A DNA stretch of 64,000 nt from Octopus vulgaris (GCA_951406725.2 OX597816.1:95976001-96040000), one strand, 5' to 3'. Shown: positions 3,075 through 54,815, counted from the stretch's first letter. Translations and numbers: made by a program. The notes: a model not told the origin generated them from the letters alone.

Positions 3075-3163
3075 TTTCATTCTACACGTGTTTCGAAAGG
3101 CACAAATTACCAAAATCCGATTGAATAATGGGACCATATTGTGTCTTTCTCTTCAGGAAGAAA
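3075..3163 (-). ncRNA. Type I hammerhead ribozyme (mirror copy)
   Basis: Exact reverse complement of the 6901-6989 motif. Confidence 0.8.
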
Positions 3164-3757
3164 AAAGGAAATCCGTTAGAGAAACAAAAACAGAACAGAG
3201 GCGGAGCAAAAACCAAATCGAACTATGCTCCTAAGAGCCCATGGCGAAACTGTTTATCAGTGTATGCTGAGAACCGGTGGCTGAAGAATTCTACAGGTCA
3301 GGCATCGGTCAATCAAGTGGGTGAGGGTGTATAGATGTTCTTAGTGACCGAGAATAAAGTTCTGACTATTTAAGGAATATTGGATGTTTTATAAGGGGCG
3401 AGAAAAAATCTACTTAGAGACGTGTGTGTGTGTATACTGTTCTATATATGTGTGTGTTGGCGTAGGGGTAGATAACATTTTTTGTGTACGTGTGTGCGTT
3501 TGATCGTTCGGCTGTCAGTGGCTACTGCCGTGATAACCGTTGGGTGGCAGAAAGAAAAAAATATATATATATTATGTTTTATGTGTGTGTGTGTTCATCT
3601 AAGCCTACCTTGTCAAGGAAACCCCCCGCTGTGAAAAAACCAAGCCCCGTTTGTCTTACAGGAGTAATTCCCCTTGCAGTGGATAATCGTAGATATCTTA
3701 AAGGCTATTTCAGAATTTGTTACCAAGGGCTATGGGTGCCGGTATTATTTATAAACG

Positions 3758-4654
3758 CTATTTAAAAGCCAGATAAGTGTAACGCCGCCAATGGGGGCAT
3801 CGAAAAGCCGACTGTAAGAGCCCGTTTACCATCCGGCCTCTGGCAAACAAAATATGGAAGAGTTCGGAGACACAAAGGTTGCACTGTCTTCTGCCCCTAT
3901 CAAATGGGAGGGCCACCGACAAAATTGACCATTCCAGCCTGTAGCTTAAGTTCGTATCCTTCAGTCGCCATATTAGCTTACTGAGTCCCGTGGTCTGGCG
4001 CTTGTTCACGTCCCGAAAAGTTGCGTAATGATTGGAGACACGCAAAGACAATCTTGAGGATGATGCCCCTACATAAGTGAAGACATCTGAGTCCGTGTAA
4101 ACCTTGCATTGGTAGACGGCGTTTTGATCTTGGAGTTCGCCGACGTAAATCTTAATCTGCTAGGATTAGTTTCTGAAATTAGAACTGCGTTCCTGTCACT
4201 ATATTCGTTCCGAGACCTGCAGCCGCTTACTACTCTATTTTCCACTACGTCACTATTAACTATAGGAATAACCCCTGATTCTCCACTATCTATCAGAGTA
4301 CTGTCATTGCTAGTGCCCGTGGTGCTGCTATTGCGGGAAATGATGCTGGGGTTGCTATTGGGGCTCTCTACCCTACTCCCATTGTTACCGTCAACCACAA
4401 CACCCCTATTTATAACTATACCCCTAGTGGGTACTCCCTGGCTGGAGCTGAGATTATGTGTCACTGTACTGGCTCTCATATCATTATTACTACTATAATT
4501 ATTCCTACTGAGCATTAAACCGGGAGCGGAAGAGGCTGTGCCTCCGGAAAAAGGTGATAGGGTCTTAGTAAGTAGCCTATTATTATGGGAGGCGATTATC
4601 TGGGCGAGGTTTTTAGTGTTGGAGAAAGCTATCCTAACTTTATGTGAGTTAACC
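3758..4654 (-). pseudogene. Inverted partial copy of the PLE linker + GIY-YIG endonuclease, frameshifted
   Basis: ORFs 4069-4704 and 3758-4051 reproduce the 5353-6306 protein, with a 1 nt deletion at ~4122. Confidence 0.9.
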
Positions 4655-6306
4655 CGGAGATCGCGGGCGGCCTGTATCGTGACGATTGTCTGTTTTACCT
4701 GCAAAACACCACGAACAGAATAGTGCAGAAAACTAAGAGCAGGTTAGCTAGGTTTTTTAATAGAATGGGCATGAGTATAGTTTTTGATAATGAACTCACC
4801 AAGGCTAATTTCCTAGACGTTACACTTAACCTTAATAGCGACTCATACTGCCCTTACCATAAGCCTTCCACTAATTTGAAGTATGTCAGTGTCTTCTCAA
4901 ATCATGCCAAAACCGTAACAGACAATTTGGTTAAAAACATCTCTCTAAGATTGTCTGGCTTGTCCGCCAGTGCCGATATTTTTATGCAGAAAGCGGAATT
5001 TTATAACGCCGCACTATCCAAGGCCGGTTATAGGCAGAAGGTAATTTATATTGATCCGGCCCTTCCGATGCCATCATTCGGTCATCAGGATAGGGCCGTA
5101 TATAATAACATAACATTTTAAGTAAGTGACGGGAGCGCGACGGATGCTGGGGTAGTCGCTCCCGCATTTAATTTAGCGAACAAGGATAATTATCGGTCCG
5201 GGAGGTCTTACACTAACCCAAGACCCGTTATTTATCCGAGAATCACCCACCAGAGTGCGAGAGCTGGCGTCCCGACCCATCACACTGATAGGAATAAGCA
5301 TATATGGTTTGTAATCCCCTTTGGTAAGCAGATTAGAACTAACCTCCCCCTCTTGTTTAGACAAGCCATCGCCAATAACTTCCCCAGAAATTCCAAATAT
5401 TACTCCACGGTTAACTCACATAAAGTTAGGATAGCTTTCTCCAACACTAAAAACCTCGCCCAGATAATCGCCTCCCATAATAATAGGCTACTTACTAAGA
5501 CCCTATCACCTTTTTCCGGAGGCACAGCCTCTTCCGCTCCCGGTTTAATGCTCAGTAGGAATAATTATAGTAGTAATAATGATATGAGAGCCAGTACAGT
5601 GACACATAATCTCAGCTCCAGCCAGGGAGTACCCACTAGGGGTATAGTTATAAATAGGGGTGTTGTGGTTGACGGTAACAATGGGAGTAGGGTAGAGAGC
5701 CCCAATAGCAACCCCAGCATCATTTCCCGCAATAGCAGCACCACGGGCACTAGCAATGACAGTACTCTGATAGATAGTGGAGAATCAGGGGTTATTCCTA
5801 TAGTTAATAGTGACGTAGTGGAAAATAGAGTAGTAAGCGGCTGCAGGTCTCGGAACGAATATAGTGACAGGAACGCAGTTCTAATTTCAGAAACTAATCC
5901 TAGCAGATTAAGATTTACGTCGGCGAACTCCAAGATCAAAAACGCCGTCTACCAATGCAAGGTTTACACGGACTCAGATGTCTTCACTTATGTAGGGGCA
6001 TCATCCTCAAGATTGTCTTTGCGTGTCTCCAATCATTACGCAACTTTTCGGGACGTGAACAAGCGCCAGACCACGGGACTCAGTAAGCTAATATGGCGAC
6101 TGAAGGATACGAACTTAAGCTACAGGCTGGAATGGTCAATTTTGTCGGTGGCCCTCCCATTTGATAGGGGCAGAAGACAGTGCAACCTTTGTGTCTCCGA
6201 ACTCTTCCATATTTTGTTTGCCAGAGGCCGGATGGTAAACGGGCTCTTACAGTCGGCTTTTCGATGCCCCCATTGGCGGCGTTACACTTATCTGGCTTTT
6301 AAATAG
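4654..6306 (+). pseudogene. PLE polyprotein: RT C-terminal half/thumb + GIY-YIG endonuclease; one frame with a single in-frame TAA (5119-5121)
   Basis: YRDD at 4675-4686, FLDVTLNL, PYHKP, HIWFVIPF, SHNNRLL, AVYQC...YVG, LEWSIL and CNLC. ORFs 4723-5121 and 5353-6306 share a frame, and 5122-5352 is stop-free by manual translation. Confidence 0.92.
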
Positions 6307-52182: not shown

Positions 52183-53177
52183 TTCGGTGAATGAATGGAA
52201 TCCCGAACTTTCCAGTAGGTAAGGACACTCCCACAGTTTGGTCAGAACCAAGAGTCATAAATTTGGGTGACCGGACTATGGGAGTGTCCAAACCAAATGG
52301 AAGGTTCGGAATTCCATTTTAGACTACACCCACCCTCATGCCCATATATATTAAGAAGAAGGAAGCACTCAGAATTTTGAATAATTCCTTATTAGCGCTT
52401 TCGTCTGTCAATAGGACATACATACATACATACAATATATATACATACATACATACATATATATATATATATATATATATATATATATATATATATATAT
52501 TATGAGAAAGTTGGTTTGTGAAAGCATATATATATATATATATATATATATACATACATACATATATATATATATATATATATATATATATATATATATA
52601 TATATATATATATATATATATTACATACATATAAGAGGGATATTACCCCTTACGTAATCACGATTACGTAAGTGGTAACAACGAAACTGGTTTGTGATTA
52701 ATCTGTATATTTTGTATTTTTTCCTTTGTCTTACTCACTTAGGTTCTGGTGTTTGCTAAATTTTCTTGAGAACATTATTTTCTTAGTGGTAAGACCATAG
52801 GGGGTCGACTTCTAGCATATGGATGTCCACTTAGTGTTCCCCCCTCTTATATGTATGTAATATCATTTTTTTGAATCTTCATATTTTTCTATATGCTAGA
52901 CCACTGGTTTTAAATTCATATTAATCAAATTATTATTTTAAGTTTAAATTTATTTATATATATATATATATATATATATATATGTATGTATGTATGTATG
53001 TATGTATGTATATGTATGTATGTATGTATATGTATGTATACACACACAAACAAACCTGTATATATACATATATAAATATAAATATACATGTGTATACATA
53101 CATACTTACGCATATACATGTATGCATGCAAGCATGCATATACACACACATACATACATGTGTTTGTGTGTGTGTGT

Positions 53178-53245
53178 GTGCGTGCGCCTGTGCGTGCGCC
53201 TGTGCGTGCGCCTGTGCGTGCGCCTGTGCGTGCGCCTGTGCGTGC
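53178..53245 (+). repeat. 12 bp minisatellite (GTGCGTGCGCCT) x~5
   Basis: Directly visible. Explains the TGAR/AQAH repeat ORFs. Confidence 0.9.
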
Positions 53246-54334
53246 ATATATGTGAAGAAGAGACACTGCGAGGGACTAGCAAAAACAGAATGAGAAATGA
53301 AATGTAATGAAAAATGAATATATTAGTGAATGACTATATCACCGCTAACCATTCTACATAGAGGAGGAAAAAATAAACAATATTTTCAGAATACTAGAAC
53401 GTTAATATAGACACATGGAAATCGATGTTAAATTGAAGAAGCTACTTGCATTGAAATCCCCAAGGATCACAAAACACTAATGAGCATATACGAAATGAAA
53501 ATGTGAAAGAAGCGGGGTGCTGCTTAATGGCGTAATATGTCATGTAGGTGTGTCGGTTTTATAATAAGTGCTTGTAGAATTTGTAAGCCGTGAGCTTCAA
53601 CACAATTGGGAAGATACTCACGGTTTTTCACGAAGACATGATGCTCAGCTTTTTCTTTAGAAAATTTTCTTCAATATGTTGAGATTTCTGGCAAAAGATA
53701 CCCAGAAAAAGTTGAGTTTATTTGTGAAGTACTTGACGTAATTTCTTCACTCCAACAAAACCAATCAAAATATAATTAACGTCCAACATTTTATAATTTC
53801 TCATCCTCAATAACTAATCGACAACGTTTTGAAAATTAGGAAGAAGAAAATTTTAGGTGTTTATTCATACATACATACATGCCTGCATACACATACATAC
53901 ACACGCATACATACTCACATATATATGTATACAGAGAGAGAAAGAAAGACAGTAATGATAAGATTACATACTACACAGTTATAACGAAAATATTTCTTTT
54001 GTACAAAGCAATTACCGAGGTAGCTCAACATAAGTGAAAAGTATCAGCTTTAGAGCAATTGTATTATACAACATAAAGAGTCAGAACGAAGTGGCACTTG
54101 AAAATAAAATCACGCTGCACATTGAAATGAATTTGTAAGACACGTAAAATTTTCTCCGACATACTGGCATATACACACGTACACACTTGTATATATATAT
54201 ACACAAAATAATATATACTCTCGCAAAAAACGTAAGCATACCCTTGAATATACACACAAGAACACACATCACTGCATTATTAATACTGCTTTATTTCGGA
54301 GGAGTCATACTAAGAAAGTATACTCATAGATACA

Positions 54335-54815
54335 TGCACAGGAAATCTCCAACCAAACTCCGAATTATTGCCTTTATATCAACATAGTGGAACAGCATCT
54401 GAGCAAGAGCTTATAAATAAGGACACCACATTCATTGAAAAATAGCAGTCACGTCTTAAATATGAAGATAAAGCAAATTTTGATTATTGTTTCACCCAAT
54501 TAACCAATTTCTTTTGAATTAATTCTAATTCTCCGCCCTCTCTCTCTTTCTCTCTCTCTCAGAGAGTGACTATTGGTCTCGCGCCTATAAAGCGCTTAGC
54601 CTATAAAGCGCTTAGCTTTATAGGCGACTCGTCAGACACAAATAATCCGAGGCACATAAACTACCTTCTACGAGTCACCTACATAGCTAAGCGCTTTATA
54701 GGTTCGAAATCAATGGTCACTCCTTGACCGACCATAACACGAAATCTTGTAAAAATGTATTACCGATCTAATGTTTTAGAGTGTACTTCTTTTTCGGATA
54801 CATAAACCATTGATA
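54335..54815 (-). mobile_element. Second copy of repeat family B with two divergent decayed HHRs
   Basis: TCGTCAG at 54629-54635; CTACGAGTCACCTAC...TAGGTTCGAAATCAATGGTCACTC at 54668-54722; internal 16 bp duplication CCTATAAAGCGCTTAG. Confidence 0.8.

Follow-up and report, generated by a model that had tools for sequence, protein, structure and literature searches.

Metazoan Penelope-like elements (PLEs) are reported to carry minimal hammerhead ribozymes on opposite strands, 100–700 bp apart (Cervera and de la Pena 2014, PMC4209133), and the account of the Hydra elements by Craig et al. (2021, PMC8557442) describes hammerheads and insertion into (TA)n together with a 5′ copy in inverted orientation, and includes one element from octopus, Hydra-1_Obim. 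In vitro work on PLEs describes nicking and extension on both strands with two start sites for reverse transcription, as well as hammerhead mutants that still insert (Arkhipova et al. 2013, PMC3846280; Frangieh et al. 2024, PMC11167929). Animal non-LTR retrozymes, which are non-coding, carry type I hammerheads and have a proposed PLE origin, consist of tandem head-to-tail units of 150–450 bp (PMC7229834; bioRxiv 10.64898/2026.07.22.740005). The motifs of PMC4209133 come from Schistosoma and other animals; the word stem “mollus” is absent from the main text of that paper, and no census of octopus hammerheads was found in the openly accessible literature searched.

Here, we analyzed a stretch of 64,000 nucleotides from Octopus vulgaris (GCA_951406725.2, OX597816.1:95976001-96040000), referred to in full as the window. 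We propose, with a probability of roughly 0.85, that the pair of hammerheads at 3156 and 6908 lies inside a truncated Hydra-type Penelope-like retrotransposon that carries its own 3′ end a second time in inverted orientation, and that the other motifs in the window probably represent decayed 3′ ends from several families of this kind, left by 5′-truncated insertions. This architecture is already published (PMC4209133, PMC8557442 and PMC3846280). As in the metazoan PLEs of PMC4209133, the window holds many families, mostly with single motifs of truncated elements, along with dual opposite-strand motifs, short or palindromic stems III, A9 followed by an unpaired base, and cores of the U3-A8 type. 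Head-to-head inverted copies, a one-sided tail, microhomology joins and an Asn-rich insert between reverse transcriptase (RT) and endonuclease recall the elements of PMC3846280 and PMC11167929, although these are Penelope/Poseidon-type elements of a rotifer and a lizard, from which the mechanism would be carried over to octopus.

The 5′-truncated main copy (4655..7051, + strand) runs from the C-terminal part of the RT with its YRDD motif through the thumb, a Ser/Asn-rich linker and a GIY-YIG endonuclease to the 3′ untranslated region, and ends in (TA)n at 7050. Its reading frame (4648-6306), interrupted by one stop at 5119-5121, matches a profile built from 14 full-length relatives with E 1.4e-53 and 3e-26, and it places the RT and the C-terminal GIY-YIG in a single frame, as in EN+ PLEs. 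Neither this frame nor those of its full-length relatives match Pfam, and the profile search found no further PLE frame in the window (next best E 0.07); pieces of the family have been annotated as the host genes “myb-like protein I” and “probable serine/threonine-protein kinase dyrk1”. An inverted, further truncated copy of the 3′ part of the element occupies 3013..4654 (- strand) and mirrors 5409-7051, so that the arms of the palindrome are 99.94% identical over 1641 bp with one 1-nt indel. The 4654/4655 junction shows imperfect microhomology. Beyond the left arm only, an extension of about 145 nt (2867..3012, - strand) followed by (TA)n is likely a one-sided PLE tail. Each arm contains an intact type I hammerhead with a palindromic stem III (6903..6986, + strand, with a predicted cut after 6981, and its mirror copy at 3078..3161, - strand), and the two motifs, 3156(-) and 6908(+), point outward. 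The locus combines a 3′ hammerhead, an inverted 5′-truncated copy and a probable tail on one side, and its RT/GIY-YIG frame shows that it is a PLE relic.

The closest known counterparts of this element are the Hydra PLEs, with which it shares the C-terminal GIY-YIG and YRDD-type RT, a type I hammerhead close to the 3′ end whose near-palindromic stem III has 3–4 bp, and insertion into (TA)n; in Penelope-13_HM, too, a 5′-truncated inverted copy brings a second hammerhead, placed on the opposite strand (PMC8557442). TA runs lie at 7050 and, past the tail, at 2866, as expected of (TA)n insertion, for this single insertion. The full-length relatives bear the DKT/DKS, YRDD and CxC..C motifs that PMC8557442 lists or depicts for Hydra PLEs, with RW[KRQ] in 47 and DK[TS] in 57 of 59 long frames; the window copy, being truncated, is missing the RWK and DKT region. 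Several differences set it apart from the Hydra clade as described there: a 228-aa Ser/Asn-rich stretch replaces the CxCX5C linker, the hammerhead, whose stem-loop II spans 55 nt, lies about 600 nt past the frame, and the tail measures about 145 nt rather than 30–40. It also represents a different family from Hydra-1_Obim, the known octopus member of the clade, as its hammerhead differs; the proteins were compared by eye. Of 65 homologous proteins, 63 have the CxCX5C linker ahead of the endonuclease, as do all 55 locus frames that span the region; it is missing from the window frame, P0151 and P0002; the window element was therefore filed as a Hydra-type variant rather than a plain Hydra member. 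In a quick tree, built with no outgroup and containing one stray long row, a very long branch within the set of relatives leads to the window element and P0151; no clade placement was drawn from this tree. Among 78 related metagenome loci, 64 were examined, 56 of which have at least 150 nt of 3′ flank; in 40 of these 56, a sense hammerhead lies no more than 900 nt from the frame end. An inverted copy was seen in 6 of the 78, and one locus, L018, has an outward-facing hammerhead pair like that at 3013-7051.

Motif counts were obtained with a descriptor requiring exact CUGANGA and GAAA boxes and a stem II of at least 4 bp, and were compared with 100 local block dinucleotide shuffles. Four defect-free type I hammerhead motifs were found in the window, against a shuffle mean of 0.34 (maximum 2), and 11 with at most one defect, against a mean of 1.98 (maximum 6); neither count was matched in any of the 100 shuffles. 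These 11 include the two identical copies 3156/6908 as well as 22544 and 28005, which look like chance matches. With a fully palindromic stem III as an added condition, there were 4 matches against a shuffle mean of 0.06, and a stricter descriptor gave 3 sites against 0.03, although allowing one core mismatch in the latter removed most of its power (4 versus 1.5). The U3-A8 core variant had 3 matches (mean 0.37, equalled in 1 of 100 shuffles), and the descriptor scan found no G3-C8 or A3-U8 variant in the window. The first box alone occurs 39 times, compared with 25 in shuffles. MFE z-scores were unremarkable for most single sites, and folding of single motifs is mostly uninformative here, as is expected for dimer-type hammerheads. 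No hammerhead was among the best 150 of 290 Rfam matches, nearly all of which were microsatellite-driven miRNA, and none reached the gathering score. A long-stem hammerhead candidate at 17111-17235, which folds at z -1.97 and has no clean core, was left uncounted. The preliminary description had expected a motif density above that of shuffled controls, and with the full descriptor this expectation holds: the hammerhead signal in the window is real.

Each coordinate named in that description has a motif at it or within about 80 nt, so its “over a dozen cores” stands if decayed relics are counted, but not otherwise, as defects are present in 11 of the 16. Defect-free are 3156(-), 6908(+), 17575(-) and 39246(+), the last failing the stricter scan through a mismatch in stem I. 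Together with 12317(-), which fits the descriptor solely as a U3-A8 core variant, these make 5 that pass; four have a single defect (11710, 42075, 45078 and 51883), and seven were judged by eye to have a broken core or several defects (7273, 7630, 11900, 42734, 51820, 54635 and 54668). A further near-intact core, 38907(-), had not been listed. The groups of 3156, 7630, 11710, 42075 and 51820 show no cross-match in a masked self-BLAST, which bears out the claim of at least five unrelated families. Cores were also said to lie mostly in inverted pairs, and 10 of the 16 do form five outward-facing pairs, but only four pairs are independent, since 51764/51879 and 54564/54668 belong to two 88% identical copies of one cassette. 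As for the proposed setting at TA microsatellites, 13 of 21 sites (16 cores, 4 half cores and the new core) have a run of (TA)4 or longer in the 250 nt downstream, compared with 18.9% of random positions, the sites not being independent; upstream, such a run accompanies just 4 of the 21. The claim does not extend to the family at 51.8 and 54.6 kb, which terminates in (GA)n and (TG)n, nor to 45078, near which there is no microsatellite.

Beyond the large element, truncated retrotransposition is indicated at the 42-kb foldback (family F), where a short inverted arm with a decayed core at 42075 (41986..42221, - strand) faces a longer copy with a decayed core at 42734 (42283..42825, + strand), and the apparent spacer is element body. 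By the letters listed, stem III is one mismatch from a palindrome. Contigs of this family from four runs share a start at 41986-41987 and have scattered stops at 42168-42215. Summed contig depth in X2, to be read as a trend and not as copy number, drops along the left arm from 6945 through 4392 to 226 and along the right arm from 1431 through 696 to 448. A joint of 42173 with 42662, present in all four runs, comes from another foldback of the family with a different junction, and opposite-strand joints 42197-42498 and 42210-42557 represent copies that pass from “spacer” to arm without inversion. The foldback is therefore made of two copies, the shorter of them inverted, and it behaves as a retrotransposon rather than a MITE because it has one fixed 3′ end, cover that falls 5′-ward and a differing junction elsewhere. 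The features that define a MITE (two fixed ends, uniform length, invariant interior and target duplication), looked for in this family only, were not found as a set. The 5′-truncation and variable junctions of the other copies indirectly identify it as a PLE relic.

A constant 3′ end with ragged 5′ ends was also found in families C and H. The three copies of family C, a stub with a minimal core at 11710 (H17=G) and a 3′ end of about 105 nt running into (TA)n (11659..11860, + strand), a stub with an intact minimal core at 17575 and terminal (TA)n (17430..17632, - strand) and a stub cut off at the stem I edge with core 39246 and microsatellite on either side (39236..39385, + strand), keep their 3′ end in (TA)n and vary at their 5′ ends; 95.8% of the cells in their aligned stems are paired, with no two-sided change among these three copies. 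Family H comprises a cassette with outward-facing 51820(-)/51883(+), a (TG)n-side tail and (GA)n (51673..52173), a second copy, inverted relative to the first and 88% identical, in which 54635(-) and 54668(+) are both broken (54343..54814), and a mini-foldback whose arms both begin within stem II, leaving half cores (45164..45274). Family D is represented by a decayed hammerhead whose 3′ end lies on the TA run it has in common with 11710 (11860..11935, - strand) and by a half core with second box, palindromic stem III and cut triplet (52350..52410, - strand), and family J by a stub with the near-intact core 38907 and terminal (TA)n (38692..38915, - strand) and a relative with a half core near 52680 (52633..52860, + strand). 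The very abundant repeat of family G contributes a stub with core 45078 and a damaged stem III (44986..45120, - strand), for which the majority letters of other copies give a stem I of 5 bp instead of 3 bp. A hammerhead candidate with a U3-A8 core pair, 12317, has TA downstream (12270..12325, - strand). The foldback at 7214..7716, with 82% identical arms (7214-7353 and 7580-7716), has outward-facing hammerhead-like relics that both read CUGGAGA, so that A6 is not conserved and a ribozyme is not demonstrable. A reading frame occurs in the window for one of about nine families, and in the others ribozyme type and end geometry are the sole tie to PLEs; from the fixed 3′ end, variable 5′ end and downstream microsatellites we infer that these families, too, are PLE relics.

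A single scheme could account for these structures. The GIY-YIG nuclease of the element would nick TA-rich or microsatellite DNA, and reverse transcription would begin, by a putative priming route, 40–220 nt downstream of the hammerhead and usually halt early, so that most insertions would be short stubs retaining the ribozyme. In some insertions, a second, shorter copy in the opposite direction would be joined head to head, giving a foldback with outward-facing ribozymes and a junction that varies between copies, and an alternative start point would confine the tail to one side. The ribozyme would be a passenger in the DNA copy, since with opposite-strand motifs each transcript holds one sense motif, which would pair with the other arm; any cleavage activity is presumed from the motifs. 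The inverted pair mostly looks like a by-product of a single insertion and not a mobile unit. The preliminary description had seen in MITE-like foldbacks inverted ribozyme cassettes derived from PLEs or retrozymes. Its PLE part is supported by the RT/GIY-YIG frame, the truncation in family F and the end geometry elsewhere, but “cassette” overstates the case. On its suggestion that annotators would mislabel such foldbacks as DNA transposons, a core or half core is present in just 5 of the 13 foldbacks of the window. The retrozyme label does not hold: the window motifs are single or on opposite strands, there are no tandem head-to-tail units of 150–450 bp (tandem periods in the window reach 40 nt at most), and the masked self-BLAST of the window found no direct local repeat carrying a core.

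Some families might instead be non-autonomous palindromic double-ribozyme cassettes, transcribed and moved whole by PLE proteins. The recurrence of 51673-52173 at 54343-54814 with the same inner junction fits movement as a unit, or duplication, and pLTR-flanked sequences are described as mobilized in trans (PMC3846280). Yet the two copies lie 2.2 kb apart in inverted orientation, for which local duplication or one larger inverted insertion suffices, the family H junction differs at 45164-45274, those of family F vary, and opposite-strand ribozymes make monomer release from one transcript impossible; we regard such cassettes as unlikely. Still less probable is that an artefact of assembly or of long reads doubled one element and so produced the 4-kb palindrome at 3013-7051. 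Its near-identical arms and a junction known from the assembly alone would suit this explanation, but the indel and the one-sided tail distinguish the arms, the microhomology at the junction is imperfect, and a like layout exists in L018 and, according to the supplement of PMC8557442, in Penelope-13_HM.

That the short foldbacks are true MITEs or DNA-transposon derivatives that carry or have captured a hammerhead-like stretch seems very improbable. They do have terminal inverted arms of 100–240 bp and AT-rich flanks, and the 8 of 13 local foldbacks that have no core may differ in origin; against this stand the single fixed end, falling cover and variable junction of family F, the occurrence of families C, D, G and J as single one-armed stubs, and the lack of clear target duplications at the ends of the 13 foldbacks. 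We give least credence to the view that AT-rich, repeat-rich DNA produced the motifs beyond the large element by chance. The small excess of the bare first box, the mostly unremarkable z-scores and the failure of weak sites (7273/7630, 52392 and 52630) when taken alone are in its favour, but homologous copies retain the motif, microsatellites lie chiefly downstream, and the full-descriptor excess refutes a chance origin for the set as a whole.

With the biology already known, the value of these PLE relics is practical. A hammerhead scan offers cheap recognition of short Penelope stubs in cephalopod repeat libraries, where the PLE protein escapes Pfam and pieces of the family carry host-gene annotations. 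It is possible, though we hold it doubtful, that an octopus Hydra-type lineage has lost the zinc-finger linker proposed to steer insertion to TA repeats yet lands in TA, and that 3′ stubs with hammerheads, derived from many Penelope families and in some cases very high-copy, make up a sizeable share of the repeats labelled MITE, SINE or unknown in octopus libraries. One small new point is a linker-less octopus lineage that still terminates in TA, which would make it possible to test directly whether the linker guides TA targeting, as PMC8557442 suggests.

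Hammerhead-like motifs are present at or near every coordinate of the preliminary description, and they are denser than in shuffled sequence. Under an exact-box descriptor (CUGANGA and GAAA), the window holds four defect-free and 11 near-intact type I sites, whereas shuffles average 0.34 and 1.98 and none of 100 reached either count; when a fully palindromic stem III is demanded, four sites stand against a mean of 0.06. The cores at 3156 and 6908, which are identical copies of each other, are free of defects, as are those at 17575 and 39246. The core at 12317 was accepted as the U3-A8 variant described in the available text of PMC4209133, a weaker class with three window sites, equalled in 1 of 100 shuffles. 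The claim of over a dozen cores holds only with decayed relics counted: among the 16 listed, seven are broken and four carry a single defect. The list lacks the near-intact core at 38907 (-). At 17224, within 17111-17430 (+) and about 200 nt ahead of a TA run, a second box with a near-palindromic stem III follows a first box 106 nt upstream, possibly a long-stem relic. Both arms of the pair at 7298-7304 (-) and 7630-7636 (+) read CUGGAGA instead of CUGANGA; because the change is common to both, it predates insertion, and the family is either dead or has a variant core.

The Penelope-like element (PLE) at 3013-7051 contains an inverted copy (3013-4654 versus 5409-7051, 99.94% identity) and a frame at 4648-6306 (+) with the end of a reverse transcriptase (RT; YRDD), thumb, low-complexity linker and GIY-YIG nuclease, and one stop at 5119. 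This frame has 2729 relatives at E ≤ 0.001, the best of them annotated in Octopus sinensis, and is matched at E 1.4e-53 and 3e-26 by a profile built from 14 relatives of at least 600 aa each, which found no further frame of this type in the window. Host-gene labels (myb-like protein I, dyrk1-like kinase, DDB_G-like proteins) sit on pieces of this retrotransposon family in O. sinensis (relatives P0001, P0002, P0003 and P0151). Long relatives share the DKT, RWK and CxC..C motifs with the Hydra clade in the accessible part of PMC8557442, whose supplementary alignment also contains their YRDD and whose supplement describes (TA)n targets, 3' hammerheads, one octopus family and, in Penelope-13_HM, a 5'-truncated inverted copy with a hammerhead on each strand. 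On the right, the arm meets (TA)n at 7050; on the left, about 145 nt more precede the (TA)n, an extension that resembles the tail found on one side of PLE insertions. The arm junction shows imperfect microhomology. Both sides of the element are bordered, in direct orientation, by the same compound TA/TATG microsatellite, which is interrupted by a non-repeat word (2764-2866, 7050-7150) and looks like a long target duplication. Of 78 independent metagenome loci of this protein family, 64 were examined (the other 14 had split or contig-end matches); a sense hammerhead follows the frame in 40 of the 56 with sufficient 3' flank, an inverted copy occurs in 6 of the 78, and one locus (L018) has an outward-facing hammerhead pair as in the window. 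Elsewhere, a 244-aa frame at 33001-33732 (+) matches RVT_1 weakly (E 0.029) and is probably a LINE fragment.

Other copies of the shorter repeats were examined over 41970-45540, in contigs from four of 24 listed runs (three studies, one possibly the source sample). Copies of the 42-kb foldback (family F) start together at 41986-41987 and stop at various positions between 42168 and 42215, and their cover drops steeply toward the 5' side of both arms. Two opposite-strand joints run from the apparent spacer into the arm, which makes the spacer part of the element body, and a joint from 42173 to 42662, found in all four runs, is a second foldback of the family with a different junction. By its end pattern, read-through joints and variant junction, the 42-kb foldback consists of one long copy joined to a shorter inverted one, the same build as the 4-kb element; the features expected of a MITE fail for this family. 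Among the variants listed, the candidate hammerhead of family F has a stem III one mismatch short of a palindrome, and in that of family G (core 45078) the majority letters raise stem I to 5 pairs, where the window copy has 3. Family G is very abundant, with a fixed 3' end at 44986 and unrelated, AT-rich flanks. The three stubs of family C (11710, 17575, 39246) share a 3' end fixed in (TA)n and differ in their 5' ends; 23 of 24 stem cells are paired, with no covariation among these three copies. In the same region, 44040-44450 is an extremely abundant, sharp-ended repeat without a hammerhead and with the top contig depth, and 44602-45487 lies within a larger multi-copy block, because its near-identical contigs reach ~30-50x single-copy depth. 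An inverted high-copy repeat pair (42845-43112 and 48812-49076, 90%, 5.7 kb apart) adjoins the 3' end of the family F copy with its first member.

The window is AT-rich (35% GC) and dense in microsatellites (108 TRF rows), with an interstitial telomere-like (TAACCC)n tract at 47862-47987. The cores had been described as mostly inverted pairs at TA microsatellites. Five outward-facing pairs do take in 10 of the 16, but just four are independent; of 21 non-independent sites, 13 have a TA run no more than 250 nt downstream, against 18.9% of random positions, and four have one upstream. The ends of family H (45164-45274, 51673-52173, 54343-54814) are (GA)n and (TG)n. Two different stubs meet tail to tail at a single short TA run (11845-11860 and 17430-17442), which suggests repeated insertion into one microsatellite.

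We consider it highly probable (about 0.85) that the hammerhead motifs mark insertions of several Penelope-like families that were target-primed and truncated at the 5' end. With priming a short way past the ribozyme, even the shortest stub would keep it. A second cDNA running the other way would yield a head-to-head foldback, either because both target strands are nicked and extended, with two start sites, as in the available text of PMC11167929, or by self-priming on an antisense template, as in that of PMC3846280. The former also reports that mutating the hammerhead of one PLE does not abolish insertion in vitro. Available passages of PMC4209133 describe dual minimal hammerheads on opposite strands 100-700 bp apart and ascribe single motifs to truncated PLEs. 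The proposed extension to many MITE-looking foldbacks of this genome, as PLE or retrozyme relics, is overstated in part. The RT/GIY-YIG frame at 3013-7051, the truncation and variable junction of family F, and a family H mini-foldback with both arms beginning inside stem II fit retro-insertion, but only 5 of 13 local foldbacks contain a core or half core (those at 28727-28900, 38183-38454, 45618-46196, 51445-51519 and 52194-52318 have no core), and the family H cassette occurs twice with a single inner layout, which also argues against treating every foldback as a PLE stub. The repeats do not qualify as retrozymes, because the window has no tandem units. Tandem retrozymes cut a monomer from one transcript; the paired ribozymes here, being on opposite strands, would be unable to do so.

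Of 65 homologous proteins, 63 keep the CxCX5C linker, as do all 55 locus frames that span the region, but the window (5500-5940, +) and O. sinensis P0151 and P0002 have a Ser/Asn-rich stretch in its place; P0003 and P0005 are also assigned to this lineage. Asn-rich inserts between RT and endonuclease have a precedent in the available part of PMC3846280. A 2026 O. vulgaris annotation (PMC13282606) lists, in its accessible text, Penelope-like, MITE and unknown classes; it is not among the papers containing both "octopus" and "hammerhead ribozyme". Its library and supplement could bear on the proposed mislabelling of such relics as DNA transposons or unknown. The original observation is thus real, if partly overstated, and the window is a new instance of a Penelope-like anatomy that was already known. 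It departs in one respect from the Hydra description in the available text of PMC8557442: the linker is replaced, and the element, a single insertion, ends in (TA)n all the same.
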